DNA of 64,000 bases from a virus (IMGVR_UViG_3300046534_001341:1-64000), one strand, 5' to 3'; numbered from the stretch's first letter, positions 38,064-54,898 are shown. The notes: generated by a model not told the origin, from the sequence alone. Made by a program: numbers and translations.

Positions 38064-38089
38064 ATATCTTAAACAAAGAGGAACGACCC

Positions 38090-39086: not shown

Positions 39087-39356
39087 TTACACAGTACACC
39101 TCATCAACAATGCTTTCAACCTCAAATCTTTGCCATCCACGAACTTAACCTTCTGCGGGTTATCCCCCAAAAATTTGTATATTAGATCACTCACGAAAGT
39201 ACACCCCACCTTTTCATGACCCAACTCAGCACGAATAAGGTAGTGGGGTAACTCAACTTGTTCCTGACTACGCATCATCTGCTTCATAAGCTCAACCGTG
39301 TAATACCTGTCAGGCTTACTCCCCTCATAAACGAATCTTACATAATCATCACTCAT
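39087..39356 (-). CDS. Hypothetical protein with C-terminal KDLRLKALL motif
   Basis: Start MSDDYV at an ATGA overlap. Confidence 0.65.
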   Translation of the reverse strand: MSDDYVRFVYEGSKPDRYYTVELMKQMMRSQEQVELPHYLIRAELGHEKVGCTFVSDLIYKFLGDNPQKVKFVDGKDLRLKALLMRCTV

Positions 39357-39685
39357 GCCACCACCGCCTTCATAACCGCGGTACCGTAATCCGCTGCCCA
39401 ATCAATATTCGTAATAGGCTCAGGCTTCGGCCCAACAAGCAAAGCTCTCAACTTAATAACCTTATCTTCCTCATACCTAACCGCAGTCACAACGTCACTA
39501 TCAACAAGGTTATTGGCCCAAGTCCTACCACGTTGACTCTCAGGCAAAACAACAATCATAGGTACCGACTCACCATGTGCCGCCCAAATAGCATTAGCAA
39601 CACCTGAACCATTAAGCTTAACAACGACATATCTCTCCACACCATCTGGGTGTAAGAACATAATAGTGCCACGAGGTTGAATCAT
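39353..39685 (-). CDS. Hypothetical protein with KVIKLRALL motif; start uncertain
   Basis: ORF 39353-39763, internal ATG chosen; coupled to the downstream gene. Confidence 0.55.
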   Translation of the reverse strand: MIQPRGTIMFLHPDGVERYVVVKLNGSGVANAIWAAHGESVPMIVVLPESQRGRTWANNLVDSDVVTAVRYEEDKVIKLRALLVGPKPEPITNIDWAADYGTAVMKAVVA

Positions 39686-39897
39686 AATAATCATCCGCCA
39701 AGGAGAAGGGACGACCATCATACACCTACAACTAAGATTCGCCATAGACAGTATTCGCTCCACATAATTTTTTAGAAAAACTATTTTGAGATTTGTGATA
39801 ATTGGGTATGAGTTCAGTACTGATGGAACGGGAACCGTAAATCGGAAGTACCCCCCCTACTTCAATCCTAATACCTATCGCCTACCCACCCTCGTCA

Positions 39898-39913
39898 TCC
39901 ACCTAACGGTGGA
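39898..39913 (+). promoter_or_regulatory. Candidate vRNAP hairpin promoter 1
   Basis: TCCACC-TAAC-GGTGGA upstream of the gp1-like gene. Confidence 0.7.
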
Positions 39914-39999
39914 GTAAGGATGATACGTAGCACTAGCTCATCCAGCGTAGCTGGCACGTGGAGACCAGCAACTTAATTCAATCATTGGAGCATCACATC

Positions 40000-40212
40000 A
40001 TGTGGGCAGCAATAGCACAAGTATGGGCATTCATCGGATCACTAGCATCAGCAGCTAACAACGCAGCTACAGCTATCGAGAAATGCACCTTGGTCGCAGA
40101 CCAAGCAGCAGACAACTTCCTAGCCGAAGAGTCAGCTAAACAAGCAGAACGCAAGATCATCCTTGCATCACGCTTAGCAGCCATTCAAGCAGAGCACGAA
40201 GCAGTAGCCTAG
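40000..40212 (+). CDS. N4-like first early gene product (gp1-like)
   Basis: Ala-rich amphipathic helical protein, GGAG RBS, first gene after hairpin 1. Confidence 0.65.
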   Translation: MWAAIAQVWAFIGSLASAANNAATAIEKCTLVADQAADNFLAEESAKQAERKIILASRLAAIQAEHEAVA

Positions 40213-40217
40213 TAGCA

Positions 40218-40233
40218 GCCTCCTCAGGGAGGC
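40218..40233 (+). terminator. Hairpin after the gp1-like gene (possible terminator)
   Basis: GCCTCC-TCAG-GGAGGC; weak U tract. Confidence 0.4.
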
Positions 40234-40382
40234 CTTACTACTTATACACACCAACACACTACACACCCTCAAAGATAGCTCCTATGAAAGGAGAGAGGCT
40301 CAGGATTGGTTATATCACGGTATATCTACCGAATAGGCCTTCCTGACAAGTCAGGCTAAACCGATACATACCCGATATGCTC

Positions 40383-40394
40383 CCACTAACGTGG
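40383..40394 (+). promoter_or_regulatory. Candidate vRNAP hairpin promoter 2
   Basis: CCAC-TAAC-GTGG then TAG. Confidence 0.7.
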
Positions 40395-40435
40395 TAGAAG
40401 GGTAATCTCATACATCTAACTCAAGGTAAATACTT

Positions 40436-40750
40436 ATGCTAAGTAGCACACATGTAATCCCTTACATAGACACACTTTTAGGTATGTACTGTGAGTACAA
40501 ACAGAACAAGTACATAGTAGTAAACGATTCTATTAGTGGTCTTGTTAAGATCACGAGTGGAACAGTACAACTACATGTAAAAGTATCTAACGTGGTCTTC
40601 CTCAAACTTCCTCAAGCACCAATTGTCAGCCATAAAGGACTGTCATACATAAGGACTGTCAAAGGACACATCTTCAGTTTAGCAACAGGCAGACTTATGA
40701 AGTGGGGGGTTAACAACGGAGACCGCAAAAACATACTGTCTGCGGAGTAA
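40436..40750 (+). CDS. Hypothetical early protein
   Basis: AAGGT RBS, follows hairpin 2. Confidence 0.65.
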   Translation: MLSSTHVIPYIDTLLGMYCEYKQNKYIVVNDSISGLVKITSGTVQLHVKVSNVVFLKLPQAPIVSHKGLSYIRTVKGHIFSLATGRLMKWGVNNGDRKNILSAE

Positions 40751-40764
40751 ACACATACCTCATA

Positions 40765-40778
40765 ACCACTAACGTGGT
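40765..40778 (+). promoter_or_regulatory. Candidate vRNAP hairpin promoter 3
   Basis: ACCAC-TAAC-GTGGT inside a longer TACCTCA...TGAGGTA inverted repeat. Confidence 0.7.
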
Positions 40779-40812
40779 AGTGAGGTAATCACACAAGTCT
40801 AGGAGAAGTCTC

Positions 40813-41250
40813 ATGAAGTATTGGGCAGGCACTACAATCACATCAATGACAGGCAGCAACATCTTCGTCTTCGGGTCTAATCCTGAAGGCAGACATGGAA
40901 TGGGTGCAGCTAAAGCAGCAATGGCCTTTGGTGCTAAGTATGGTAAGGGTCGTGGTCGTCAAGGCAACACCTACGCACTACCAACAAAGAACCTGAAGGC
41001 TGGGTTCTATGAACGGGCATCAGGCATCACCTATGAGAATGCTGGTAAGCGCAGCATTACTCTTGAGCAGATCAAAGACAACATCATTGAGTTGTACAAA
41101 GATGCTCATATGAACCCCACACTTACTTACTTCGTTGTCTACCAAACCAACAGTAATAACCTCAATGGGTATTCACCTAATGAGATCATCGAGCAGTTCA
41201 CCTCATTGGATATGCCGGACAATATACGCATACACAACAGCTTTCGATAG
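40813..41250 (+). CDS. A1S_2505-family phage protein (possibly macrodomain-like)
   Basis: IFVFGSNPEGRHGMGAA...FGAKYG.G.G.QG.TYALPTK signature. Confidence 0.7.
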   Translation: MKYWAGTTITSMTGSNIFVFGSNPEGRHGMGAAKAAMAFGAKYGKGRGRQGNTYALPTKNLKAGFYERASGITYENAGKRSITLEQIKDNIIELYKDAHMNPTLTYFVVYQTNSNNLNGYSPNEIIEQFTSLDMPDNIRIHNSFR

Positions 41251-41260
41251 GCTAACGCCT
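41249..41260 (+). promoter_or_regulatory. Candidate vRNAP hairpin promoter 4
   Basis: AGGC-TAAC-GCCT then TAG. Confidence 0.7.
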
Positions 41261-41294
41261 TAGTTAGGTATCAATAGAACTATTGGAGAAGTCT

Positions 41295-41510
41295 ATGCCA
41301 GCTCAAGAACTACTAGCACAAGCCTCATTAGGTGAGTCGTACCCAAGCCATGAATACTCATGTGCTATGTACATTGCACCAATCAACCTCGATGGGCTCA
41401 ACAACATCGAGATACATGCACCAACCCAAGAAGAAGCAGAAGCTATTCGCTCTCTTGTGTTTGAGGCAATCCAACACATTCACTCTTTAGGAGAGTCGCA
41501 TGGTAACTAA
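41295..41510 (+). CDS. Hypothetical early protein
   Basis: GGAG RBS then ATG CCA. Confidence 0.6.
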   Translation: MPAQELLAQASLGESYPSHEYSCAMYIAPINLDGLNNIEIHAPTQEEAEAIRSLVFEAIQHIHSLGESHGN

Positions 41511-41610
41511 ACCTATGATCCAAGGCTTTCTCATAGCCCTCACAGTCGTTGTACTTAGCACAGTAGCCATTAGGCTACTTTGTATGTACGCAGTCTCAAT
41601 CGCCGCTTAA
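41500..41610 (+). CDS. 36-aa membrane peptide (not in ORF track)
   Basis: AGGAG RBS; MVTKPMIQGFLIALTVVVLSTVAIRLLCMYAVSIAA. Confidence 0.55.
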   Translation: MVTKPMIQGFLIALTVVVLSTVAIRLLCMYAVSIAA

Positions 41611-41626
41611 ATCCAAGGAGAACGCT

Positions 41627-41800
41627 ATGGATGTCATGCCTAAACCCGCAGGACACGGTGAGTGTAATAACTCGACCAAATATTGCACTACATGTGGTGC
41701 CTGTAACCCACCTAGAACACCTTGTCGTAGTTGTGGTGGACGCACACAAGTAAGTAACCCAACTCAAGTAGGTTATCCAGATAACTACAAGACCTTTTAA
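41627..41800 (+). CDS. 57-aa zinc-ribbon protein (not in ORF track)
   Basis: AAGGAG RBS; CTTCG...CRSCGG. Confidence 0.6.
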   Translation: MDVMPKPAGHGECNNSTKYCTTCGACNPPRTPCRSCGGRTQVSNPTQVGYPDNYKTF

Positions 41801-41815
41801 TCCAAGGAGAACACC

Positions 41816-42061
41816 GTGACTAAAATTAGAACTTATGGGTATCAATGCCCATTCGATGGTAAGAACTTACAAGCTGATCTCGTTATTGGTCTTAAAACAT
41901 TGATTGGTCGTCGTGTCACTCGTAGCGCCAATGCGTCTATGGGCACGATCATCGACACTGAAATGTCTGATCATGGTTGTGTGATTATTCATGTCACTTG
42001 GGATACGGGCCACAAAGGTAATACCTATGGGCCAGCCTCACTAATCATAATACCTGACTAG
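41816..42061 (+). CDS. Hypothetical protein (possibly SH3-like)
   Basis: AAGGAG RBS; GTIID...HVTWDTG. Confidence 0.6.
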   Translation: MTKIRTYGYQCPFDGKNLQADLVIGLKTLIGRRVTRSANASMGTIIDTEMSDHGCVIIHVTWDTGHKGNTYGPASLIIIPD

Positions 42062-42070
42062 GAGAATACC

Positions 42071-42319
42071 GTGCCTACATTGGTTGAGTTCAAAGAACAG
42101 ATACTGGGTACGCTACATGACGAGGAAGCCATTCAAAAAGTTGAAAGGTATTTCGAGTTATTAGCGGACCATGAAAACCATACCGCAGAAGAGATCACCT
42201 CACATACCCGTGAGATGCTAGACCTGCATACATTGAAGCCAAAGCATGTAAGTATGTTGTACAGCTACTACATGAACTCTAAATACTATCAATCAATCAA
42301 AGATCTAGGCTTTAGATAA
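42071..42319 (+). CDS. Hypothetical protein
   Basis: AGGAG RBS, ends before a terminator. Confidence 0.65.
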   Translation: MPTLVEFKEQILGTLHDEEAIQKVERYFELLADHENHTAEEITSHTREMLDLHTLKPKHVSMLYSYYMNSKYYQSIKDLGFR

Positions 42320-42328
42320 ACACCTCAT

Positions 42329-42352
42329 AACCCCACGGTTGTGGGGTTTTTT
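42329..42352 (+). terminator. Intrinsic terminator
   Basis: CCCCAC-GGTT-GTGGGG-TTTTTT. Confidence 0.85.
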
Positions 42353-42415
42353 CGTTTACACACCTTTACACACCTCGCGTGTTTACTGCACATGCGTAGC
42401 CAGTCCGAAAAAAAG

Positions 42416-42427
42416 GGGCTAACGCCC
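42416..42427 (+). promoter_or_regulatory. Candidate vRNAP hairpin promoter 5
   Basis: GGGC-TAAC-GCCC then TAG, upstream of the gp2-like gene. Confidence 0.7.
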
Positions 42428-42477
42428 TAGTAAGGGGAATCACCCCAACCTTTTAATCACTCCGGAATACAAAAATC

Positions 42478-42750
42478 ATGGCATATCCTAGCACTGCTCC
42501 ATCTCAAGCAAACCGCAACAGCATTAAAGTGGCGGCTGCATTCTTGAACATCACCATCAAAGACTCTGCCGGTAACCCTCGACGCATCGGTGGACTGCCT
42601 TTGTACGCAGAAAACAAAACTCACGTTGGTATCCTAGCTAAGTTACAAGCTACGGAAGAAGCTAAGGCTGGTAGTAAAGAGTCTAAGTTCAAGTTTGTTG
42701 TTGACTACGAATTACGTTTAAACGACGCAGATGAAGTCGTTACATTCTAA
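42478..42750 (+). CDS. N4 gp2/Drc-like ssDNA-binding RNAP II activator
   Basis: AFLNI...GLPL core and C-terminal TF, resembling N4 gp2 (FWLNI...GIPL...LTF, recalled). Confidence 0.6.
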   Translation: MAYPSTAPSQANRNSIKVAAAFLNITIKDSAGNPRRIGGLPLYAENKTHVGILAKLQATEEAKAGSKESKFKFVVDYELRLNDADEVVTF

Positions 42751-42807
42751 GTAGTTCCCAAAGGGCATCCATATTGGGTGCCCTTTACTTTGTTTGGGGA
42801 TAGAACC

Positions 42808-43038
42808 ATGGAACCATCAATAATATTAGCCTCTATAGGCGGTGCAGTCATTTGGGGTCTTATCAAGGTGGTGCTCCAAGCCATCTTTGGTAACCGTAAG
42901 AGGCTCAAACCTGTACCTTATGTAGGTCACATGCAGTATTGCCGTGATCACATGCAAGAACCAAATCAATCACATTATGCAGACCACAACTGTGATCACT
43001 GTAAAGCCTTAGCCAAATTTGAATCGGAGCGCGGATAG
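42808..43038 (+). CDS. Membrane-anchored Cys/His protein
   Basis: N-terminal TM; C..H...H.....CDHC. Confidence 0.6.
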   Translation: MEPSIILASIGGAVIWGLIKVVLQAIFGNRKRLKPVPYVGHMQYCRDHMQEPNQSHYADHNCDHCKALAKFESERG

Positions 43039-43039
43039 T

Positions 43040-43360: not shown

Positions 43361-43361
43361 T

Positions 43362-44017: not shown

Positions 44018-44062
44018 CTTCAACGCCCTCACAAGAGGGCAACAACCACTACAGAAGAGAGA

Positions 44063-44857: not shown

Positions 44858-44932
44858 ACCACCAGCCCAGCTAACACAGTGGGCATCATTGTCACCTCCG
44901 GTGACCTACCTGACCAATATTTGGAGAAAAAC

Positions 44933-45223
44933 ATGAAGTCGTTACTAATTATTAACATAGTGATAGTTGCATCAGTGGCCTTAACAATCCAAGTTTTAAA
45001 CATGCATAAACCAAAGCCTTCATTTGGAGGGTTAGTCTTTGAAGTGATCACTACGCCTGTAGATACTATATCTAAAGGGGATGAGTGCAAGATGCTTGGT
45101 ATGAACGTGACTGTATTTCAGGTACGTAAGGCCACTGTAGGCTTTGCAGATGTGGTGACTAACGATTTAACACTACTTAATGTACCTCGACGAATCCTCA
45201 AGAACTGCACACCTCAGCCCTAA
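44933..45223 (+). CDS. Membrane-anchored hypothetical protein
   Basis: GGAG RBS, N-terminal TM. Confidence 0.6.
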   Translation: MKSLLIINIVIVASVALTIQVLNMHKPKPSFGGLVFEVITTPVDTISKGDECKMLGMNVTVFQVRKATVGFADVVTNDLTLLNVPRRILKNCTPQP

Positions 45224-45253
45224 TGGCTGAGGCCATTTCAGGGAGAAGATAGA

Positions 45254-45445
45254 ATGCCTGATTCAAAGATAGCTCATAACTTCGTTCGTGGTATTACATA
45301 CAATTGTGTTAAGTACGATGCCACGTATGCCCAGTACCTAAACCGCATTGGTGAGTTGTACTCAGGTCTAGCCATAAATGAAACCACCTACAAAGAACTA
45401 AAACTAAAGAGATTTCTTGGAGTTATGCCATGTCGAGGTCAGTAG
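45254..45445 (+). CDS. Array A member 1 (KELKLKRFL)
   Basis: GGGAG RBS; YxxYL and tail motif. Confidence 0.65.
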   Translation: MPDSKIAHNFVRGITYNCVKYDATYAQYLNRIGELYSGLAINETTYKELKLKRFLGVMPCRGQ

Positions 45446-45624
45446 CTGAAAGCGCCCATAGGCGTTGTGTCTCCTATCAAGGGTACGAACAAGCAGTCGA
45501 TCGTAAGAACTCCCGATGGGATAGAGACACCATCGACGACACCCTATCAATGGAAGAGTTCATTCAGGTGGGTAAAGAAATCCGCTTAAAACAACTACTT
45601 ACGAGGCACCAAAATGGTATCTAA
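45430..45624 (+). CDS. Array A member 2 (KEIRLKQLL)
   Basis: GGAG RBS; YxxY and tail motif. Confidence 0.65.
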   Translation: MSRSVAESAHRRCVSYQGYEQAVDRKNSRWDRDTIDDTLSMEEFIQVGKEIRLKQLLTRHQNGI

Positions 45625-45626
45625 GC

Positions 45627-45857
45627 TTGTATTCCATGGGTAATGGTTGTCACACAGCTAAGAAGATAGAGCTGCAAGGTAGGACTGATTACATCCGTGC
45701 TGGGTATAAATACTCCACTTACCTACGCATGATCACCTTACGTAATATCGGGCGCCATCCTCCTCAAATAATCACACCTATAACTGAAGAGGACTACAAC
45801 CAGCAGCTCAAAGAGCACGCACTCAAGGAACTGATCTCATGCAACGTGACCCAGTAA
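45627..45857 (+). CDS. Array A member 3 (KEHALKELI); start uncertain
   Basis: YSTYL...TPITEEDYNQQLKEHALKELI. Confidence 0.65.
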   Translation: MYSMGNGCHTAKKIELQGRTDYIRAGYKYSTYLRMITLRNIGRHPPQIITPITEEDYNQQLKEHALKELISCNVTQ

Positions 45858-46009
45858 ATGTAAGCCTGTGGCGGTCGTACGCTGATTTCAGGCACTCGTA
45901 CTACACGTACACCAAAGCCCTCAGTTCTCATTGCACACCAGTTTCTGAAGAAGTGTACAATCAACGACTCAAAGAAAACAAACTCAAATCACTTTTAATA
46001 GGTAAATAA
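45839..46009 (+). CDS. Array A member 4 (56 aa, not in ORF track; KENKLKSLL)
   Basis: AAGGA RBS; YYTY...TPVSEEVYNQRLKENKLKSLLIGK, clear paralog of member 3. Confidence 0.75.
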   Translation: MQRDPVNVSLWRSYADFRHSYYTYTKALSSHCTPVSEEVYNQRLKENKLKSLLIGK

Positions 46010-46010
46010 C

Positions 46011-46202
46011 TTGAAACAAATATGGATATCACAAGATATTGTTAATAGTACTATCACAGCAGGTATCGAAAGCCGTAAGGGTAAGATCGTCAGGGAGAAG
46101 GTGTTCCCTGACACCACCCCAAAACAGATAGTCGATGAATGGGCCAACAAGGAAATCGACATGATGGAGTTACTAATGCTGGAAAACCAAAGTGACACCT
46201 GA
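46011..46202 (+). CDS. Array B member 1
   Basis: KVFPDTTPKQIVDEWANKE. Confidence 0.6.
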   Translation: MKQIWISQDIVNSTITAGIESRKGKIVREKVFPDTTPKQIVDEWANKEIDMMELLMLENQSDT

Positions 46203-46437
46203 CCCAACTGAGTTCTGGAGGGATATTACATTGAAATCAGCAGAAGGATACACCTGGGGATGGGAGAAGCAGCGTAGAAACTACGAGGCCACCATCCACT
46301 TCGATGGCTTTCAAGTCATAACCAAGAACTTCCCTATAGGTACTGAGCCAGATGTAATGGCTGCATGGGCCAAAGGGGAGATCCAAGTACGTAAACTCAA
46401 AGACCTTATCGCGCCTCCGGCACGTTCCAACCCGTAA
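46192..46437 (+). CDS. Array B member 2 (KLKDLI)
   Basis: GYTWG...KNFPIGT...AAWAKGE. Confidence 0.65.
   Translation: MTPDPTEFWRDITLKSAEGYTWGWEKQRRNYEATIHFDGFQVITKNFPIGTEPDVMAAWAKGEIQVRKLKDLIAPPARSNP
46410..46424 (+). promoter_or_regulatory. GC-rich hairpin with TCC loop (GGA on template)
   Basis: CGCGCC-TCC-GGCACG, one mismatch. Confidence 0.4.
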
Positions 46438-46462
46438 TTTAACCTAAATAACTGAGTAACAA

Positions 46463-46741
46463 ATGATCCAAATTAATGAAGTATTCTCATGTGAACGCGA
46501 CAAATACCAATGGTTGCTTCACCAAAAGAAACCTAAGGGTAAACACCCAATCACAGGTGAGTTATCCACAAAAGAAAGCACCTCTGTCACATACCACTCA
46601 AACCCTGAGCAGATCATGAATGTGGTGATAAATCGCAGCTTAGGTAAATGTGAGTCACTTGTAGAGATGCGTGACATGCTCGTAGAGAGCCGTGAGATGG
46701 TCTCTAAGGCATGTGCGGCTATAAGTAAAGCCAATACATAG
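46463..46741 (+). CDS. Hypothetical protein
   Basis: DKYQWLL...TYH pattern common in small phage proteins. Confidence 0.65.
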   Translation: MIQINEVFSCERDKYQWLLHQKKPKGKHPITGELSTKESTSVTYHSNPEQIMNVVINRSLGKCESLVEMRDMLVESREMVSKACAAISKANT

Positions 46742-46754
46742 GTGAGGTATAAAT

Positions 46755-46964
46755 ATGGCCAGATACTGGGTTAAATTCAAACGTATCAAGAAGACTAATC
46801 GAGTGATGGCAAGCTTGGTTATGCCCACTAATGCAGGGCCAAAAGTCATGGCCCAGAAAAGCTTCCATGCTTACCAAACCTCTTATGGGACTATTGACCC
46901 TAACGTCCAGAAATGGGCAAGTCCCTTAGTGAACATGTATCGGCTGCTATCTCCACATGGGTGA
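46755..46964 (+). CDS. Array B member 3 (divergent)
   Basis: GAGGT RBS; KSF...QKWAS...YRLL. Confidence 0.55.
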   Translation: MARYWVKFKRIKKTNRVMASLVMPTNAGPKVMAQKSFHAYQTSYGTIDPNVQKWASPLVNMYRLLSPHG

Positions 46965-47220
46965 GCTAAGTGAGATCTACCCTAGGGTACACAGAGCAAT
47001 TGCAGCACCTTGGGAACCGAAGTACACGAGAGGGTTCGCTTGGGTAATACCTCCTCACACCAATCTTAGTGAGGTGAAAGTAATCATCCGAGTCAACTCA
47101 AAACAACAACGAGAAGAGACATTCAACGCTACAGACATAAAAGCTATAGCGAAGTGGATTAACTCACAGACCAAAATCTTAAGGTTAGTCATGCCGGGGG
47201 TGTCTAGTGACAGGAGATAA
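46957..47220 (+). CDS. Array B member 4
   Basis: GFAW...ETFNAT...IAKWINSQ. Confidence 0.6.
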   Translation: MGELSEIYPRVHRAIAAPWEPKYTRGFAWVIPPHTNLSEVKVIIRVNSKQQREETFNATDIKAIAKWINSQTKILRLVMPGVSSDRR

Positions 47221-47488
47221 CACACAACCTGATAAGATAGTTGGGCGGATAAGATTACATACCCAACCAATTAATGGATTCTACTGGTCTATGTTCCACG
47301 AGCACCCAGATGGTGTGTACGTAATGGCTTCTTACTCAGACCCAATTGTAGTTGTAATACAGCTTTACGACAATACTAAGACATTCCCTGCCTCTACACC
47401 ATGTAGTGACATTGAGGGTTGGGTACTAAAAGAAACCAAGAAGATAAACCTGAAGAATTTACTTTTTACTTGTACCAAAACCAATTAA
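47207..47488 (+). CDS. Array B member 5 (KKINLKNLL)
   Basis: GFYW...KTFPASTP..DIEGWVLKE. Confidence 0.65.
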   Translation: MTGDNTQPDKIVGRIRLHTQPINGFYWSMFHEHPDGVYVMASYSDPIVVVIQLYDNTKTFPASTPCSDIEGWVLKETKKINLKNLLFTCTKTN

Positions 47489-47537
47489 TTATAAACCCAA
47501 AGGTGGCTACGGCAACCGAAACATAAAGGTATAAACC

Positions 47538-47846
47538 ATGAATAAATTAGCATTAGTAATAACCATTGCGGCTATGGTTGGATGCGCATCTGCACCACGT
47601 CAATTGCCTGTATTGGTAGATGGTAACAACTATCTAGCTATGGGCACCGACTGCTCGTATGGCATGATGAGCCAAAATGTACCTAATCAGCTTGACTGCT
47701 ACAACGAAGACAAAAAGTACACAGGCAATCGTAAGCCTATGACAGCCAAAGAGCTTAAGGACTTCTGGGCAATACGAGACCAGAACATCACAGACCGTCA
47801 GGTTGATCGATTGAAAACACAGCTACGTAATGGCCGAGGACGTTAA
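47538..47846 (+). CDS. Lipoprotein
   Basis: Signal peptide with MVGC lipobox. Confidence 0.7.
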   Translation: MNKLALVITIAAMVGCASAPRQLPVLVDGNNYLAMGTDCSYGMMSQNVPNQLDCYNEDKKYTGNRKPMTAKELKDFWAIRDQNITDRQVDRLKTQLRNGRGR

Positions 47847-48319
47847 TGCTAGAGATTACGCAGGAAATTAATTACTACTGTAAAGATGTTAATGGGTACT
47901 CATGGGGGGTGACTCAGGAACACAACCGAGCCAGCCCCATCAAGGTTGAGATTCATACCAAGCCCAGTATAAAAAAGACATTCATCTCCAGCACCCCTAG
48001 AAATAGGATCGTAGATTGGATCACCCAAGAGACCGCTAAGCTCAAGCTAAAAGCCTTGATAGGCCCTAAGGCCAAAGTAGAGTTGGGAAACCCTTGGGAG
48101 GGTTTAGTGAAACTTTCAGGGCAGATGAATCAGGTTAAGACTTGCGGGAGAAGAGTAGGAGTCATCATCTTTGATAGTATAGATAACTACTACGAATCCA
48201 ACGCCACCCAGTACGTATCCAGCACCAACATACCTGAGTCCAACCAAGCCGCCGCCTTTGATAAACAAACCGGTAAAAACAAATCCAAAACTAAATACAA
48301 CAGCCCATACGGGCCATAG
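47846..48319 (+). CDS. Array B member 6 (KLKALI) with C-terminal extension
   Basis: GYSWG...KTFISSTP..RIVDWITQE. Confidence 0.65.
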   Translation: MLEITQEINYYCKDVNGYSWGVTQEHNRASPIKVEIHTKPSIKKTFISSTPRNRIVDWITQETAKLKLKALIGPKAKVELGNPWEGLVKLSGQMNQVKTCGRRVGVIIFDSIDNYYESNATQYVSSTNIPESNQAAAFDKQTGKNKSKTKYNSPYGP

Positions 48320-48327
48320 GAACCACC

Positions 48328-48597
48328 ATGGAACAGTTTATTGTAGTCATAGTTATAGGGATCTTCTTCTACTACCTAGGATCTAGGGATGGTAAGAAGG
48401 ATCAGTACAAAAAGGACAAGGCCATGATGGGGGTTATGGAATATGCCACCATCAAAGCATTTAGGCAAACTAGAGAAAAATGTTTATTGAACGAAATTTT
48501 GATTGCAAAGATAGCCTTACTAGAGAAAAACAAAAAAGAAATAGATGAAGTCAGTGGTAAATCATCAATTAATACAGGCAAGACCAATGCTGAATAA
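48328..48597 (+). CDS. Membrane-anchored hypothetical protein
   Basis: N-terminal TM then G..DG. Confidence 0.6.
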   Translation: MEQFIVVIVIGIFFYYLGSRDGKKDQYKKDKAMMGVMEYATIKAFRQTREKCLLNEILIAKIALLEKNKKEIDEVSGKSSINTGKTNAE

Positions 48598-48931
48598 AAA
48601 CATACACATAAAAACTGGGATGCTACTCGTAGTAAAGAAAACCTTCTGGACTACTGCTGCCCACAAGGTTGATACTTTCCACGTGAAGTATCAAATACCT
48701 AAAGGTACCATCCTTGAAATACGTTACCCGTATGAGTGGCACTTCCGCTTTGGAGACAATTGCTGGGCACAAGTACCAGCAGAAACACTGGTTAAGTGTT
48801 GTGAGTTCTTTGGTGTGATCCATGAAGATGTAAGGTTCAATAACAATAATAGCCTACCTGAAATCATGGAAGAAAATCTGTACTACCCTGCATCTGAATA
48901 TAAATTGGTTCGTTCCGAATCTGCAAAATAG
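48587..48931 (+). CDS. Hypothetical protein
   Basis: Overlaps the previous stop; ends before hairpin 6. Confidence 0.6.
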   Translation: MLNKNIHIKTGMLLVVKKTFWTTAAHKVDTFHVKYQIPKGTILEIRYPYEWHFRFGDNCWAQVPAETLVKCCEFFGVIHEDVRFNNNNSLPEIMEENLYYPASEYKLVRSESAK

Positions 48932-48942
48932 TTGTTCTCTTC

Positions 48943-48954
48943 CGGCTAACGCCG
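48943..48954 (+). promoter_or_regulatory. Candidate vRNAP hairpin promoter 6 (upstream of RNAP II subunit 1)
   Basis: CGGC-TAAC-GCCG then TAG; position analogous to the N4 early promoter driving RNAP II genes. Confidence 0.75.
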
Positions 48955-48991
48955 TAGGGGGCAACGTCCCCCACACTTTAAGGAAATATCC

Positions 48992-49972
48992 ATGGAAATC
49001 AAGAACCTAGAACAAATGTGCATTGAAGACCGCTATTCTCGTAGCAACATCCGTGCTCGTGTCCTTCTGGACATCATGGATAGTGTTGAAACCGATCTTG
49101 CTATAGCCTTCGACAAGGCAGCACAGGCCATTCACAACTATGCCTACGGAAAAGTATCACAGACTTATTGGTCATCCAAACTGGTGCGTGTACAGCACCT
49201 ACGTAACCTATTAGATAAAAAAATGACCATCAATGATCTTGTACTTGAGATCTTAATTATCGTTATGCCTATGAAGACCGCTCAGCCTATACAGGGGCCG
49301 TGTGGTCGCTTAGGTGGTATGTTAGGTTACGGGGATATATTCGATGGCGTAAAGACGGCTGCGGAGCTACTAGCAGTAGTGTGCTTCTCAGACCTTTACG
49401 ACATCATTCCAGCTAGGGAAAGCGAGGGCGACAGTATGTCTATAATGCCACGTTACTCCCTAGAAAATGAAACCAATCAGTTCATTTCAGACACCAAGTA
49501 CCTACCTCCTATGATCTGTAAGCCTGAAGTATTGACTCGCAACTTTCAGAGTGGGTACCTAACCATAGAAGACTCAGTGATCCTGAAGGGTGTGAACCAC
49601 CATGAAGAGTATGTATCTCTGGATGTGCTCAACATGGCTAATGGTACCGCGCTAGCCTTGGACACTAACATCTTACGTATGAAGGAAAAGCCTAATAAGC
49701 CGTTCGATTCACTACATAAAGATGGGTCTGTACCAACAGTTAAAGTGATCTTGGAACGTGAGAAGAACTTTTTGGAACTGAAGGCAGCATCAAAAATTGT
49801 GTACAAAGAGTTACTAGATAACGGCAATGAGTTCTTCAACTGCCATAAATTCGACTCTCGTTCACGCAAGTACTCTCAGGGGTACCACGTCCACATTCAG
49901 GGAAGTGAGTATAAGAAAGCCATTATTAACCTGGCTACGGAGGAAGTGATCACAGATGGTATTATCTTATGA
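48992..49972 (+). CDS. RNA polymerase II subunit 1 (N4 gp15-like)
   Basis: YLPPMICKP, SGYLT, HKFDSRSRKYSQGYH..QG..YKKA. Confidence 0.92.
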   Translation: MEIKNLEQMCIEDRYSRSNIRARVLLDIMDSVETDLAIAFDKAAQAIHNYAYGKVSQTYWSSKLVRVQHLRNLLDKKMTINDLVLEILIIVMPMKTAQPIQGPCGRLGGMLGYGDIFDGVKTAAELLAVVCFSDLYDIIPARESEGDSMSIMPRYSLENETNQFISDTKYLPPMICKPEVLTRNFQSGYLTIEDSVILKGVNHHEEYVSLDVLNMANGTALALDTNILRMKEKPNKPFDSLHKDGSVPTVKVILEREKNFLELKAASKIVYKELLDNGNEFFNCHKFDSRSRKYSQGYHVHIQGSEYKKAIINLATEEVITDGIIL

Positions 49973-50187
49973 AAATGCCTGACAGACCTTTCGGTACATT
50001 CCCCTACGACATCTTCAATGTGATTACAGATCATGAAGGGGAGTTCGTACAGCACGCCGTGGCCAGACACTTCACCATGTCCCTGAGTAATGCCCAGCAA
50101 TGGGTTGATTACCATGAATATTCAATTAAGCGACTAAAGCTTAGAAAACTCTTGGAAAGTAAAAATGGAAGAACCAAGGCTACCTAA
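49969..50187 (+). CDS. Array C member 1 (KRLKLRKLL)
   Basis: FPYDIF..I...AV..H...S..NAQQW. Confidence 0.65.
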   Translation: MKMPDRPFGTFPYDIFNVITDHEGEFVQHAVARHFTMSLSNAQQWVDYHEYSIKRLKLRKLLESKNGRTKAT

Positions 50188-50404
50188 AGGCATGATCCCA
50201 CCTGATATCTACAGGATTATTATAGGCCGTATTGACGGTGTTCATGCAGTAACGGCTTTGTGTCATTACACAGATCTAAACGAAGAAGAGGCATCAGATT
50301 GGTTTGCCTTCTATAAGTGGGCAGCAGCAAATCGTGAAGCCCGACTAGAACAAGCACACAAAGAAAACCAACTCAAAATATTACTAAGACTCAAAAGGAA
50401 ATAG
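50165..50404 (+). CDS. Array C member 2 (KENQLKILL)
   Basis: IPPDIY..I...AV...CHY..L...EASDW. Confidence 0.65.
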   Translation: MEEPRLPKGMIPPDIYRIIIGRIDGVHAVTALCHYTDLNEEEASDWFAFYKWAAANREARLEQAHKENQLKILLRLKRK

Positions 50405-50406
50405 CA

Positions 50407-51402
50407 ATGCAAACATTCTCAGGTTTAGATTATACAAAGATCGCCGTAGCAAATGCCTTCGGCAATGATAAAGATGTCTGGGATGATCGCATTGATTGGG
50501 CTGAAAAGTTCCTTGAGAAGCAGTCGGCTCATACGATGCGTAAAGCAGATGAGCCATTCTTAATGAGGAAGGCTGTGAACGCTTACAACGATGCAGTGGC
50601 TGGTAAGGCTACTGGTTACATAATGGGCCTAGATGCCACGTCCTCAGGGCTTCAGATAATGGCTGCCTTGAGTGGTTGCCTGACTACTGCCCGTAACGTG
50701 AATCTTATCAATACCGGTTCAAGAGAAGATATATACCTGAAAGTAACCAAGCGCATGCAGGAACTGTGCCCTCACCTAAACATCACACGTAACCTTCTAA
50801 AGCACCCAATCATGACGTTCTTCTACAACTCTAAGGCGCAGCCTGAAGGTGTATTTGGAAAGGACACCCCTGAGCTAGATGCTTTCTACGAAGTACTGCA
50901 TGAACTCCTACCGGGAGCCATGGAAGTAATGCGCATGATTCAGGCATGTTGGAATCCTGAAGCCACTGAACATAAGTGGACCGCACCTGATGGACACGTA
51001 TCTATACCTTTGGTTATGGACTACGTAGACACCAAGATCGAAGTAGAAGAGTTAGGTAAGGCTACATTCACCCACCGCGCCAAGATCGTTATGTCTGATG
51101 AGCGTGGCTTATCATTACCGGCAAATGTGAACCAATCGATTGATGCTTACATCGTTCGTATGATGTATCGCATGGCTCATAGTCAGGGTTGGGAAATCCT
51201 AACAGTACATGACGCATTCTTCTGCACACCGAATAATGTGAATCGTATGCGTATGAACTACAACAAGATCTTATCTAAGATCGCCTCATCCAACATGCTT
51301 TGTGACATCTTGAAAGAGATCACAGGCAATAAGGGAACTATCAAGAAGATGTCTACTACACTTCCTGGCTTGATCCTTAAAGCAAACTATTCACTTAGCT
51401 AG
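50407..51402 (+). CDS. RNA polymerase II subunit 2 (N4 gp16-like)
   Basis: LDATSSGLQ (A), RNLLKHPIMTFFYNS (B), VHDAF (C). Confidence 0.95.
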   Translation: MQTFSGLDYTKIAVANAFGNDKDVWDDRIDWAEKFLEKQSAHTMRKADEPFLMRKAVNAYNDAVAGKATGYIMGLDATSSGLQIMAALSGCLTTARNVNLINTGSREDIYLKVTKRMQELCPHLNITRNLLKHPIMTFFYNSKAQPEGVFGKDTPELDAFYEVLHELLPGAMEVMRMIQACWNPEATEHKWTAPDGHVSIPLVMDYVDTKIEVEELGKATFTHRAKIVMSDERGLSLPANVNQSIDAYIVRMMYRMAHSQGWEILTVHDAFFCTPNNVNRMRMNYNKILSKIASSNMLCDILKEITGNKGTIKKMSTTLPGLILKANYSLS

Positions 51403-51451
51403 GAGCTAACCACGGAAAAAGAACGACATATTAGAATCTGTTAAGTACGTT

Positions 51452-51689
51452 AACAATAAACTTTATGGGGAATGAAAATGGATGATTACACAGTAAAACG
51501 GATGGGTCTTATATTAGCTGTTCAAGCAGAAGTCGAGGGCATGAAAGCTGCTAACCTAGTGAGTGATTTACAAGAGTATGGCGGAGGGCATTTCGATGAA
51601 AAAGCCGAAGAAATACGTAATATAGTTAACGCTAATGACCACCAGTTAGATTTAATGGGCTAAGAACGTAAACAATAAACTTTATGGGG
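51452..51689 (+). repeat. 19-bp direct repeat AACAATAAACTTTATGGGG
   Basis: Copies at 51452-51470 and 51671-51689, each just before a gene start. Confidence 0.85.
51472..51663 (+). CDS. Hypothetical protein
   Basis: QAEVEGMKAAN motif; lies between the direct repeats. Confidence 0.65.
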   Translation: MKMDDYTVKRMGLILAVQAEVEGMKAANLVSDLQEYGGGHFDEKAEEIRNIVNANDHQLDLMG

Positions 51690-51695
51690 TACAAA

Positions 51696-51980
51696 ATGAG
51701 TGATACAACACAATTAAACAAACCTCTTTGGCATCAGAACCTGACATATGGGCAGGTGGAGGCCGAAGCAGAAAAGGACTATCCTAAGGTTATATACAAT
51801 CTGCATGAGGATTGTTTATGCCTACGCGAAGAGCTGGCGGCTTTGAAAGCTGATCGCGGGCTGCTCGTCACTGCGCTTTTATCAATTGTAGATTCTAATA
51901 GCTTCGATCCAGATGATGGGCGCTATATGTCAAATATTGCAGAACTAGCATTAAAAAAGGCGGCGACAAATGGAGTCTAG
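51696..51980 (+). CDS. Hypothetical protein
   Basis: Start after the second repeat copy. Confidence 0.6.
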   Translation: MSDTTQLNKPLWHQNLTYGQVEAEAEKDYPKVIYNLHEDCLCLREELAALKADRGLLVTALLSIVDSNSFDPDDGRYMSNIAELALKKAATNGV

Positions 51981-52043
51981 ACAGGTGATTACAGCGGTAG
52001 TGCTGAATGCTCAAAAGCTCACAAACCAGATAGAGGAAAAATC

Positions 52044-52241
52044 ATGAAAGCAAAAGAACTACGTGATGAATTCTGGGATGATCATGCTTGCCCCTCTTGG
52101 GGACGGTTAGGTACAACAGCCACGCAGAACGATTACCCTGAAGAAGTCCGAATGGCTTGGACAGACTTCTTATACTTCTCACACGATGCAGGAAACATCT
52201 CTGCAGAAGTCATGGACAACACCTTACTGGCTCCTGAATAG
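52044..52241 (+). CDS. Hypothetical protein
   Basis: GAGG RBS; QNDYP..VRMAW.DF. Confidence 0.65.
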   Translation: MKAKELRDEFWDDHACPSWGRLGTTATQNDYPEEVRMAWTDFLYFSHDAGNISAEVMDNTLLAPE

Positions 52242-52242
52242 G

Positions 52243-52257
52243 GCCGCCTCCGTCGGC
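52243..52257 (+). promoter_or_regulatory. GC-rich hairpin with TCC loop (GGA on template)
   Basis: GCCGCC-TCC-GTCGGC, one mismatch. Confidence 0.4.
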
Positions 52258-52358
52258 TGTTTGCCCTGTTCGTAATAGAAGTCTCGCTAGCGAGGAAAAA
52301 GTTATGAAACCGATAGGCTAAAAACCTAAAACACCCAAAAGCCTACCATAGGCAAACG

Positions 52359-52394
52359 AGCCCCTAACCTTAACCGGTTGGGGGCTTATTTTTT
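52359..52394 (+). terminator. Intrinsic terminator
   Basis: AGCCCCTAACC...GGTTGGGGGCT then TATTTTTT. Confidence 0.8.
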
Positions 52395-52409
52395 GCCAAA
52401 GGAGGCAAT

Positions 52410-52649
52410 ATGAACGAATTAGATCTTATGAATTTACTGTGGGTAGTGTGGTTTATTTTATGCACCATCCTATCCTTGGGCTTAGCTATTTATACTAAGT
52501 GCGGGGGTGACGCACTGTTATTGATTTTAATGGCTGGTTTCTTTGGGCCGTTTATATGGGTGCTAATAGGTTTGGCCACTCTCATATTATTGATGGCGTT
52601 TTTAGGGGAGCAACTCCTTAAATTCCTAAGGAGGGGGCATGACCAATAA
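52410..52649 (+). CDS. Small multi-TM membrane protein
   Basis: AGGAGG RBS, highly hydrophobic. Confidence 0.7.
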   Translation: MNELDLMNLLWVVWFILCTILSLGLAIYTKCGGDALLLILMAGFFGPFIWVLIGLATLILLMAFLGEQLLKFLRRGHDQ

Positions 52650-52854
52650 GGCAGTATTAGACGAAGATGAGTGCATCGTGTGCACGCACAATAAACATGC
52701 AAAAGGCATAATATGGAGGTTGAGGGTGAACAACATTATGACAGATAAGCCTGTTGAAGGTGTAAGAAGAGAATTCGTATATTGCAGTTATTGTGATGCG
52801 GGCAAAGAACTAGCCAAACAGGAGCTACTACGTGAGCTACTTATCAAAAAATAA
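52639..52854 (+). CDS. Array D zinc-finger protein 1 (KQELLRELL)
   Basis: CIVC...CSYC..G. Confidence 0.7.
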   Translation: MTNKAVLDEDECIVCTHNKHAKGIIWRLRVNNIMTDKPVEGVRREFVYCSYCDAGKELAKQELLRELLIKK

Positions 52855-53026
52855 CCCTAGAAAGATCTGCCCAGTATGCAAGGATACAGGTAAGACCTGG
52901 AAAAACCTACCTAGCGGTGTGCTAGATAAAAGTCCTAGAGGGGTTACATACTGCTGGTGCCCTGTAGGTGAGAAAATGGAAAAAAAGAAAGAACTCCGTG
53001 ACCTGCTTATGGGAGTTAAATCATGA
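52832..53026 (+). CDS. Array D zinc-finger protein 2 (KKKELRDLL)
   Basis: CPVCKDTG...CWC..G. Confidence 0.7.
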   Translation: MSYLSKNNPRKICPVCKDTGKTWKNLPSGVLDKSPRGVTYCWCPVGEKMEKKKELRDLLMGVKS

Positions 53027-53283
53027 CAGAAGGGTGTAAGGCGTGTGGTTTTGGGTTGCTACCGAAAGAGTATAAAAAATTTGAAGAGCTTCAGCACGAG
53101 CAGGGGTCGACCATCCCAATGCAGTATTGTTTTTGTGCTAATGGACAGAGACTAGCCAAAGAGGGTCGGCTACGTAATCTACTAACAGGAGAAAAATCGA
53201 ATCAATATACGGTACCTGACGACGTAGATTACAAAGATGCCGAGGATAAGGTAAGGGATTGGTTGGACTTAGGGGTTATATAG
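53023..53283 (+). CDS. Array D zinc-finger protein 3 (KEGRLRNLL)
   Basis: CKAC...CFC..G. Confidence 0.7.
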   Translation: MTEGCKACGFGLLPKEYKKFEELQHEQGSTIPMQYCFCANGQRLAKEGRLRNLLTGEKSNQYTVPDDVDYKDAEDKVRDWLDLGVI

Positions 53284-53480
53284 TGGGTTACTTAGGTAGG
53301 AAATATAACTATAAAGAGCAGTGCAGGACATGCGGGGGCAAGGGTAGATACCGTGAACGTAGAGCCCCTGATCCTAATGACCCCCATAGGGGTCGTAACC
53401 CAACTCAACTATGCCATTGCCCTGCAGGTGAACAAAAGGCTCGTGATGAGGCTTGGGATCGGATACAGAATGATAGTTAG
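53283..53480 (+). CDS. Array D zinc-finger protein 4 (tail motif degenerate)
   Basis: CRTCGGKG...CHC..G; GTG start. Confidence 0.65.
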   Translation: MGYLGRKYNYKEQCRTCGGKGRYRERRAPDPNDPHRGRNPTQLCHCPAGEQKARDEAWDRIQNDS

Positions 53481-53658
53481 ACATGTTGAATGCAGGGCCT
53501 GTACTAAAGATGCTTGGGACTTACCCAGATGTGTCATAAACCGTACAGCACCTGACGGGTCGTTTAGACGAGCCAGTTCTTTTTGCCTGTGTGCGGTAGG
53601 TAGGCACCTACTTCAGGTTTACTCACTCAAACAATTATTGAAAGGAAAGAGGATATGA
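53470..53658 (+). CDS. Array D zinc-finger protein 5 (SLKQLL)
   Basis: CRAC...CLC..G. Confidence 0.7.
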   Translation: MIVRHVECRACTKDAWDLPRCVINRTAPDGSFRRASSFCLCAVGRHLLQVYSLKQLLKGKRI

Positions 53659-54104
53659 ATGACCTAATACTGTGGGCAGTAGTGACGGCAGTGATGTCAG
53701 CGCCTGTAATACTACTCATGAAAATATATGAGTGGAAAGCTTGCGTGCTCTTTGGGCACCACCCCAGTGAGTGGACGTGGGCGCAGGATGGGTATAACTC
53801 CCCTGTGCCTAATGAAGAACGGATCTTGTTCAGCCAGATGCACGGGCATTGTCGCCACTGCAAAGTGGAGGTACGTACGTTTAGTGAGCAGCATAGACTT
53901 ACAGCCTATTACACCAAAGAGCAGTGTGCCCAGTACGGGTATGAATTCGTTGATAAGAAAGAATACGAACTCAAGAAACTGCTTCTAGGTAAACGTAACG
54001 ACGATGACCTATTCACTAGAAGTAACCAGATAAATTCAGGCATGCCTATGTTGGGCACAACAGGAAGGGTGATCAAAGTCGGCTTCCCTAGGAAGCTTAT
54101 ATGA
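53655..54104 (+). CDS. Membrane-anchored Cys/His protein with KEYELKKLL
   Basis: N-terminal TM; CVLFGH...CRHC. Confidence 0.65.
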   Translation: MNDLILWAVVTAVMSAPVILLMKIYEWKACVLFGHHPSEWTWAQDGYNSPVPNEERILFSQMHGHCRHCKVEVRTFSEQHRLTAYYTKEQCAQYGYEFVDKKEYELKKLLLGKRNDDDLFTRSNQINSGMPMLGTTGRVIKVGFPRKLI

Positions 54105-54250
54105 AACAAACAACCAAAAAGTGTCCCAAGTGCGGCAACACTCATCTGATCTTACTACAATCCCAGAACCTCAAGGTCTGTATGAACCATAAACCTAAAG
54201 CAGTCCTAATTCCTTGGTTCTTGGATAAAGGACAAAGGCCTTTACTATGA
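54101..54250 (+). CDS. 49-aa zinc-ribbon protein (not in ORF track)
   Basis: KKCPKCGNTHLILLQSQNLKVC...IPWFLDKGQRPLL; ATGA-coupled at both ends. Confidence 0.7.
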   Translation: MKQTTKKCPKCGNTHLILLQSQNLKVCMNHKPKAVLIPWFLDKGQRPLL

Positions 54251-54450
54251 GAAAAGCTGTCACGTTTAACCCACACTGGGTGGGTGAGGAGCCTGCTTGG
54301 GACATCCGTTTATTAAATGGGGATCACCACCGCAGCGTTACTAAAACTACTATTTTAGCTGTAAGCACTAGAAGACATGGCACCAGTGTATTGGAGTGCG
54401 ATGTTCAAGATTACGGCACACACCACTTAAAAATAGCAGCGCAGAAATGA
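54247..54450 (+). CDS. Hypothetical protein
   Basis: ATGA-coupled at both ends. Confidence 0.6.
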   Translation: MRKAVTFNPHWVGEEPAWDIRLLNGDHHRSVTKTTILAVSTRRHGTSVLECDVQDYGTHHLKIAAQK

Positions 54451-54632
54451 GCAAGTGCGGTATGTGCTCTCATGATGCTGTACATACCGCGACAGGTATA
54501 TTACCTCCCCTGCATGATTGGGGTACATTTACCTTTTGTCGTTGGTGTGTGAAGGGCGCCCAACTCAAAAAAGAACAGGCACTTAGGCAACTACTTAGAG
54601 GAGACCCTCCATGTGCAAAACCAGAGATATAA
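54447..54632 (+). CDS. Array D zinc-finger protein 6 (KEQALRQLL)
   Basis: CGMC...CRWC..G. Confidence 0.7.
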   Translation: MSKCGMCSHDAVHTATGILPPLHDWGTFTFCRWCVKGAQLKKEQALRQLLRGDPPCAKPEI

Positions 54633-54877
54633 GTAAACCTGAAGAATGCGTAATGTGCTCAGAGGGTTGTGACCCAGCCGCCACAGGCAGAAGACCCCAC
54701 AAAAAGTTCAGTACTGAATTCTGCGTTTGGTGTGATCTAGGTATACAGTTGGAAAAGGAACATAACCTCAAGAAATTACTTCTCAATGATAAGAAACCCC
54801 GAACAATTGCCGATCTTATACGCAAACAAATGAATGCAAAAGGGGCGGCCTCCGGCCGCTTTGTTCCCAAAAATTAA
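54611..54877 (+). CDS. Array D zinc-finger protein 7 (KEHNLKKLL)
   Basis: CVMC...CVWC..G. Confidence 0.7.
   Translation: MCKTRDISKPEECVMCSEGCDPAATGRRPHKKFSTEFCVWCDLGIQLEKEHNLKKLLLNDKKPRTIADLIRKQMNAKGAASGRFVPKN
54845..54859 (+). promoter_or_regulatory. Perfect GC hairpin with TCC loop upstream of the AAA ATPase
   Basis: GCGGCC-TCC-GGCCGC. Confidence 0.5.
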
Positions 54878-54898
54878 TACACCCAAAAAGGAAATACC

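Follow-up and report, generated by a model that had tools for sequence, protein, structure and literature searches.

A short helix near the C-terminus of unrelated small early proteins of an uncultured N4-like phage: a candidate docking element

In the uncultured N4-like phage represented by the IMG/VR virus record IMGVR_UViG_3300046534_001341, 17 small open reading frames (ORFs) between 39.1 and 54.9 kb, together with one variant, carry the motif L-[KR]-x-L-[LI], usually preceded by K-E-x-x and followed by x-G-K. The window analysed here is the first 64 kb of this 76,845-bp record. The motif sits on small proteins whose bodies are otherwise unrelated, and it may be a portable docking helix that is read by one common partner. 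This reading is favoured because it explains the data best, and we give it slightly less than an even chance. A first-pass annotation of the same DNA had reported the 17 strict copies and the variant KELKLKRFL at 45254, and all of them were recovered at the reported positions and in the reported frames. Two of the gene starts given there, 53470 and 54447, are internal ATGs of longer ORFs; the start at 54447 matches that of the database protein P0010.

The expectation that the motif would be more frequent than in shuffled small ORFs was borne out. Among the 48 small ORFs between 38 and 55 kb, L[KR]xL[LI] gave 18 matches, whereas 5000 residue shuffles averaged 0.53 and never exceeded 5; one of the 18, an internal LKTLI in the ORF at 41816-42061, is probably due to chance. 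The extended form K[EKDQ]xxL[KR]xL[LI] was observed 12 times in the same ORFs, compared to 0.008 in the shuffles, and the remaining 62 proteins (18,000 residues) contained three motif matches where 1.8 were expected. An unbiased search for patterns in a reduced alphabet ranked h+.hh first, which was present in 27 of 46 proteins versus 9.6 expected. Given that the chance of a match per protein lies between 0.0004 and 0.026, an occurrence in five or six independent families would be far beyond chance. Within 45254-54877, the motif is found in 16 of about 30 small ORFs. Beyond 55 kb it is present in one small ORF only, at 67308-67625 of the genome and thus outside the window, which brings the number of copies to 19; the first 45 residues of this ORF resemble one of the carrier families described below (family A).

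The consensus reads K-E-x-x-L-[KR]-x-L-[LI]-x-G-K. With the first leucine of the core as position 0, all 18 copies have L(0), K/R(+1) and L/I(+4), L(+3) is found in 17, K(-4) in 15 and E(-3) in nine, and G(+6) and K(+7) occur in seven copies each. The protein ends 3-11 residues past the motif in 12 of the 18 copies and has an extension of 20-85 residues in the other six. Degenerate copies are present in the ORFs at 46011 (MMELL) and 46957 (LRLVM). Two further small proteins encoded on the plus strand were left out of the count. The one at 52410-52649 has hydrophobic stretches, and its last residues, EQLLKFLRRG, narrowly miss the motif; the other, at 47538-47846, has a signal-peptide-like N-terminus followed by a cysteine, possibly indicating a lipoprotein, and ends in VDRLKTQLRNG.

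Selection on the protein level had been suggested on the basis of varied leucine codons, and the codon counts agree with this. Six codons are used for the first leucine of the motif (TTG, TTA, CTC, CTG, CTA and CTT) and five for the K/R position (AAA, AAG, AGA, AGG and CGT), and no base is fixed beyond the amino-acid demand at the conserved residues. Since the codons differ where the residues are conserved, selection acts on the motif peptide and not on a DNA or RNA element.

Alignment resolves the carriers into five families, namely A, B, C, D and a pair encoded on the minus strand. Family A comprises four members with a tyrosine-rich module, and family B five members, two of them with degenerate tails. 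Both members of family C are encoded between the subunit genes of RNA polymerase II (RNAP II). The seven members of family D, one of which lacks the motif, are CxxC...CxC-xx-G zinc ribbons with a hypervariable loop. A derivative of family D (53655) has an added hydrophobic N-terminal segment, presumably a membrane anchor; the first-pass annotation had set this protein apart as a separate kind, which the alignment does not bear out. It had also counted the two minus-strand genes separately, but they are paralogues of each other.

The bodies themselves proved unrelated, as had been claimed. After removal of the tails, BLAST gave only weak links, all of them within families. Pairwise comparison of the five family profiles by hhalign yielded probabilities below 8% throughout, and for 8 of the 10 pairs the best local match covered the 9-13 motif residues alone, in register. 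No family in Pfam or PHROG matches any of the bodies, no sequence relatives of the carriers were found in the PDB, and a search of the ESM Atlas returned nothing above 0.81. Single weak matches of the 50165 protein to TCAD7 (Pfam, E 0.069) and of the 53023 protein to an HNH-endonuclease PHROG (0.0067) were set aside, as neither was repeated in other members. The carriers and their relatives within the families are as follows (lengths in amino acids, aa).

39087-39356, minus strand: minus-strand family, first member, 89 aa; KDLRLKALL five residues before the stop; paralogue of the 39353 protein.
39353-39745, minus strand: minus-strand family, second member, 130 aa; KVIKLRALLVGPK, then a 27-residue extension.
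45254-45445, plus strand: family A, 63 aa; variant KELKLKRFLG.
45430-45624, plus strand: family A, 64 aa; KEIRLKQLL.
45627-45857, plus strand: family A, 76 aa; KEHALKELI.
45839-46009, plus strand: family A, 56 aa; KENKLKSLLIGK followed by the stop, the full consensus.
46011-46202, plus strand: family B, 63 aa; degenerate KEIDMMELL, with the same form in orthologue P0024.
46192-46437, plus strand: family B, 81 aa; QVRKLKDLI, with LNDLI in orthologue P0019.
46957-47220, plus strand: family B, 87 aa; degenerate TKILRLVMPG.
47207-47488, plus strand: family B, 93 aa; KKINLKNLL; modelled.
47846-48319, plus strand: family B, 157 aa; AKLKLKALIGPK, then an 85-residue extension with a conserved end of its own.
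49969-50187, plus strand: family C, 72 aa, between the RNAP II subunit genes; KRLKLRKLL.
50165-50404, plus strand: family C, 79 aa, between the RNAP II subunit genes; KENQLKILL.
52639-52854, plus strand: family D zinc ribbon, 71 aa; KQELLRELLIKK followed by the stop.
52832-53026, plus strand: family D, 64 aa; KKKELRDLLMG; modelled.
53023-53283, plus strand: family D, 86 aa; KEGRLRNLLTGEK, then an extension.
53259-53480, plus strand: family D without the motif (EAWDRIQ), 73 aa; cysteine pairs and glycine kept.
53470-53658, plus strand: family D, 62 aa from the internal ATG; QVYSLKQLLKGKRI followed by the stop.
53655-54104, plus strand: D-like derivative, 149 aa, with the hydrophobic N-terminal segment, a cysteine pair and the helix; KEYELKKLLLGK, then an extension.
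54447-54632, plus strand: family D, 61 aa, identical to P0010; KEQALRQLLRGD.
54611-54877, plus strand: family D, 88 aa; KEHNLKKLLLND, then an extension; orthologues P0006, P0011 and P0014.

Two of the long extensions have features of their own. The far end of the 47846-48319 protein forms a second strongly conserved module, N-I-P-E-x-N-Q-x-A-A ... G-K-x-K-S-K-x-K-Y-x-S-P-Y-G, which is kept in all three of its diverged orthologues (P0020-P0022). The ends of the 54611-54877 and 53655-54104 proteins resemble each other loosely in a second tail, G-[AT]-[ST]-G-R-[FV] ... P-[KR]-[KN], which P0006 and P0011 have as well; this likeness is weak and may be due to chance.

AlphaFold2 was run on the family alignments and provided one model each for family B (47207) and family D (52832). 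The B model (predicted local distance difference test, pLDDT, 71) shows four strands followed by a helix at residues 66-92 with the motif at 82-86, and the D model (pLDDT 66) a zinc knuckle, a hairpin and a helix at residues 44-60 with the motif at 55-59. Both models are most confident in the C-terminal helix, whose last two turns are the motif. The first-pass annotation had described a helical motif mostly near the C-terminus, which fits these models, but in them the motif terminates a longer helix and is not a free tail. The frequent glycine at +5/+6 would cap this helix, and on a helical wheel K(-4), L(0), L(+3)/L(+4) and K(+7) would lie on one face. With the B model, Foldseek found nothing in the PDB at E ≤ 0.001. 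In VIA-align wide searches, the same model was matched best by the N-terminal domain of AcrIF24 (Z 6.7 and 6.2), with type III secretion system chaperones and T7 Gp1.2 at Z 4-6, all of which are small sheet-plus-helix binders, and the top Z for the D model was only 2.1. Scores of this size, obtained with predicted structures, point to no more than a common sheet-plus-helix arrangement and are too low for kinship.

Relatives of the carriers were sought by a full hidden Markov model search of 1.84 billion representatives and by two word-based searches. Only a handful were found, all of them on ENA/Logan metagenome contigs, one of which is 76,718 bp long and encodes P0014 and P0020. The diverged relatives of family D (P0011, P0013, P0014 and P0015) and of family B (P0019-P0022 and P0024) all keep the motif or a one-residue variant of it. 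In 11 orthologue pairs, motif positions -4 to +4 are 79% identical versus 58% for the rest of the proteins, and a strain variant of the 52832 gene carries a synonymous change in one leucine codon of the motif. For family A, no relatives outside the phage were found. IMG/VR yielded no relatives, either by protein or by alignment, and neither did the JGI metagenome contigs. A search of IMG/VR with the degenerate DNA pattern for K-E-x-x-L-K-x-L-L-x-G-K gave 62 single matches, each within a large unrelated protein, and revealed no array on another contig. Given that the relatives are few and that the motif is kept in them, these comparisons indicate that the tag is a trait of a small lineage under purifying selection.

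The first-pass annotation had proposed to scan related Schitoviridae for the motif, and there the pattern did not extend. The motif was present in none of the 40 small proteins of Alteromonas phage vB_AemP_PT15-A5 (PT15-A5) and, in a weak form that was never the extended one, in 3 of 38 small proteins of Escherichia phage Pollock. The unbiased pattern search applied to the small proteins of these two phages also revealed no comparable shared pattern. PT15-A5 gp89, which ends in KEEALRQLRGN, was considered as a relative of the minus-strand pair and rejected, since no similarity was found.

From these data we infer that a common partner exists. The motif would then be a portable interaction helix, consisting of the last two turns of the C-terminal helix and often closed by a glycine, that sits on at least five unrelated small bodies encoded in the early/early-middle block of one lineage of cold-marine N4-like phages. 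Contact with this one partner would keep K(-4), L(0), K/R(+1), L(+3) and L/I(+4) unchanged and leave the bodies free to diverge. Since polar positions are conserved alongside the leucines, a specific groove fits better than generic packing.

Several points weigh against a docking helix. The first-pass annotation had envisaged a stock of recognition heads that all attach to a single hub. While the unrelatedness of the bodies, the selection on the helix as a peptide and its retention in diverged orthologues all stand, no hub was identified, no recognisable target-binding family was seen in any head, and the library-and-hub function remains putative. The distance from the motif to the C-terminus is not fixed (3 to 85 residues), unlike in classical C-terminal tags. 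One member of family D (53259) and two members of family B lack the strict motif. In such small proteins, part of the helix must also pack on its own body, and some of the conservation could therefore be structural.

This last point leads to an explanation that needs no external reader at all, namely that the helix is an intramolecular structural element closing each small fold, derived from one ancestral mini-protein whose N-terminus diverged or reached by convergence. We consider it unlikely, although it accounts for a number of observations: the helix is the best-defined part of both models and directly follows the body, small beta-plus-helix proteins need such a helix, the tandem paralogue arrays show that the carrier genes arose mainly by local duplication, and a tryptophan about 10 residues upstream recurs in families B and C, hinting at a longer shared C-terminal module. 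However, a zinc ribbon, a four-stranded sheet and the tyrosine-rich module of family A are unlikely all to need the same K(-4), E(-3) and K/R(+1), and the family profiles share nothing past the 9-13 residues. In the B model, moreover, the hydrophobic patch is only two turns long and placed at the distal end of a 27-residue helix, which the four strands of 5-7 residues may not reach. PT15-A5 and Pollock, in which the folds of most small early proteins are unknown, lack any such pattern.

It appears quite improbable that the helix serves self-association, an option also named in the first-pass annotation, in which the tagged proteins would join into homo- or hetero-oligomers and so build up a mixed network. 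Dimers are common among small phage regulators, short leucine-rich C-terminal helices often pair, and one common helix would permit mixed assemblies. The hydrophobic run, however, spans only about 1.5 heptads, heptad assignment would put a conserved lysine or glutamate at a core position, which is not coiled-coil-like, and the mean hydrophobic moment of the 12-residue window is low (0.22). Complex prediction for two copies of the family D protein at 52832-53026, with an alignment of 14 rows, gave a score of 0.00 versus a mark of 0.42 and weighs neither way on this question.

The hydrophobic moment also bears on a common non-protein target, in which the motif would act as a membrane helix of the MinD/FtsA kind or bind nucleic acid and so gather early proteins at one site in the cell. 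L-[KR]-x-L-L-x-G with flanking lysines superficially resembles the MinD tail, F-L-K-R-L-F-G-G, and the motif windows are net positive (mean +1.7). On the same scale, though, the value of 0.22 compares with 0.41 for MinD and 0.61 for FtsA, and the motif offers no more than three large hydrophobic side chains. One third of the copies lie within the protein and not at its end, one carrier already has the hydrophobic N-terminal segment that presumably anchors it in the membrane, and basic residues are too few for a nucleic-acid helix, making this explanation very improbable. A nucleotide-level element that happens to be translated, such as a promoter, a recombination boundary or a translational-coupling signal, is hardly conceivable despite the position of the motif near the ends of tightly packed or overlapping genes, where the Gly-Lys codons in some cases overlap the Shine-Dalgarno sequence of the next gene, given the codon diversity described above, the retention of the motif even where 30-85 further codons follow and its presence on both strands in the sense frame only.

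If the docking helix is nevertheless accepted as the leading explanation, its partner may be sought in the phage or in the host. A candidate in the phage is encoded directly downstream of the carriers, as the gene of a MoxR-type ATPase begins 22 bases past the end of the last tagged gene (54877) and is followed by that of a metallopeptidase.

54899-55948, plus strand: MoxR-type AAA+ ATPase of the N4 gp24 type (PHROG 1297, E 1e-124; weak match to Pfam AAA_3).
56585-57754, plus strand: zincin-like metallopeptidase fused to a vWA domain, N4 gp25 type (DUF2201_N, 4e-39; DUF2201, 7e-25; PHROG 1314).

The peptidase-vWA protein has intact HEAWH (HExxH) and DASGS (metal ion-dependent adhesion site, DxSxS) motifs. 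PHROG 1314, which it matches at 4e-130, is labelled 'HNH endonuclease', a label we judge to be wrong because Pfam and the HExxH/DxSxS motifs point otherwise. Between the two genes lies a plus-strand gene for a conserved 218-aa protein (55953-56609; PHROG 4657, 4e-55), which may be a third component of the MoxR/vWA machine.

Kaur, Burroughs, Iyer and Aravind (2020, PMC7159879, section 24) proposed that the vWA domains of MoxR systems capture a client peptide, and they described zincin peptidases beside vWA-MoxR systems whose partners are small proteins that diverge fast but conserve a peptide at the C-terminus. For the MoxR AAA+/metallopeptidase-vWA pair of jumbo phages, chaperone action together with peptidolytic processing has been proposed (Iyer et al. 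2021, PMC7824862). Owing to these proposals, the pair is a reasonable candidate reader that would capture, remodel or trim the tagged proteins. As the common partner, suggested by adjacency and analogy, it nevertheless remains doubtful, and a hub of the host, such as a protease, a chaperone or a polymerase, is no less likely. More specifically, the pair, which is conserved in the Schitoviridae and in many further phages, might recognise the lineage-specific C-terminal helix on an early host-takeover library and remodel, trim or remove its members on schedule, the helix being one dialect of a general phage tag-and-reader system; this extended version is decidedly unlikely. The pair also occurs in PT15-A5, about 10 kb from RNAP II and behind rIIA-like and rIIB-like genes, and it is annotated in Pollock. 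As the small proteins of these phages show neither the extended motif nor a comparable pattern, the presence of the pair does not predict a tag, which counts against the proposed docking function as well. Mimicry of RNAP II by the tails was likewise considered and dropped, because the internal HLRNLL of RNAP II subunit 1 is not conserved in PT15-A5.

The genes described here share with the bacterial vWA-MoxR peptide-processing module (PMC7159879) the joint encoding of a MoxR AAA+ ATPase and a vWA protein, a zincin-like metallopeptidase in the same neighbourhood, and small, rapidly diverging proteins with a conserved C-terminal peptide. In contrast to that module, the peptidase is fused to the vWA protein, about 20 genes are tagged instead of one precursor, and the motif is helical, often internal and none of the FxSxx, RxD, acidic or FtsH-associated types. 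Moreover, the module belongs to a bacterial conflict system, and the genes described here to a lytic phage. The phage MoxR/metallopeptidase-vWA pair described in PMC7824862 (PHROG 1297 and PHROG 1314) is present here, but virion proteins and not early proteins are proposed there as its clients, and no client tag is described.

Phage T4 offers a parallel for one short peptide on several unrelated phage proteins. Clamp-binding C-terminal tails are found on its gp43, gp33 and gp55, and its internal proteins have an N-terminal capsid-targeting sequence; the peptide is in each case read by one phage hub. Unlike the motif described here, the clamp-binding tails are aromatic or acidic and form the very end of the protein, and the capsid-targeting sequence is N-terminal and cleaved in the prohead, whereas our motif is C-terminal and on early-block genes upstream of and around RNAP II. 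Only a few proteins carry such peptides in T4, compared to half of an early gene block here, and the sequences are unrelated.

Two likenesses to eukaryotic and viral systems concern the form or the principle. The L-x-x-L-L core, which lies on a short helix and is flanked by charged residues, recalls the eukaryotic LxxLL motif (nuclear-receptor box), but the reader of the latter is the activation function 2 (AF-2) groove of nuclear receptors, and the resemblance is one of form only; we know of no nuclear receptor with an AF-2 groove in bacteria or phages. F-box, BC-box and poxviral PRANC proteins similarly join variable recognition bodies to one constant hub-binding element. In those families, however, the element is a folded domain some 40 residues long, for which Pfam models exist and the hub is known (Skp1, Elongin); here it has 9-13 residues, and no Pfam match to such a domain appeared at E up to 10 among 25 members.

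The first-pass annotation had stated that no such system was known in N4-like phages. This agrees with our literature searches, in which no description of a motif common to Schitoviridae early proteins was found. The principle of short docking peptides with a single hub as their reader is known; one helix on about twenty early proteins with at least five different bodies is, as far as we found, not in print for Schitoviridae. No part of phage genomes is understood less well than the small early proteins. If the docking reading is true, half of the small early proteins in one block share a single handle, and a 12-residue peptide could reveal a hub of host takeover. The carriers would then provide a first set of clients for the MoxR/vWA-peptidase pair, which is widespread in phages, or else point to a host hub. 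The handle is in addition a practical marker that groups orphan ORFs into one functional set, and the zinc-ribbon array, with its hypervariable loop and constant tail, is a natural scaffold-plus-handle design.

The phage is placed in the Schitoviridae because of a minus-strand ORF of 3,262 aa, presumably the virion RNA polymerase (vRNAP), a split T7-like RNAP II and the overall gene order. RNAP II subunit 2 has its closest match in PT15-A5 at 44% identity, so that the phage is remote from all cultured phages; megablast and tblastn searches of INPHARED detected no relatives. DNA near-identical to positions 45200-54900 of the window is present in two ice metagenomes from different studies, one of which may be the source sample, and short pieces of the same region occur at ≥99% identity in two seawater metagenomes. 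This occurrence in ice and seawater suggests that the host is probably a cold-marine bacterium.

At the start of the plus-strand early block, two perfect TAAC-loop hairpins are located at 39898-39913 and 40765-40778, with stems of 6 and 5 bp, respectively; they are the only ones found with stems of at least 5 bp and would be compatible with hairpin promoters of the vRNAP type. The plus-strand gene at 38033-38596 encodes a protein of 187 aa whose C-terminal half matches the Pfam Tad2-like family (Thoeris anti-defence 2, E 8e-21), and it is probably an anti-defence gene heading the early block.

48992-49972 and 50407-51402: genes of the two subunits of the split, T7-like RNAP II.

Small ORFs separate the two RNAP II subunit genes in all three phages compared, with two of them here (48992-51402), four in PT15-A5 (L002, 9885-12798) and two in Pollock (L065, 4577-7370), and these inserted ORFs are unrelated from phage to phage.

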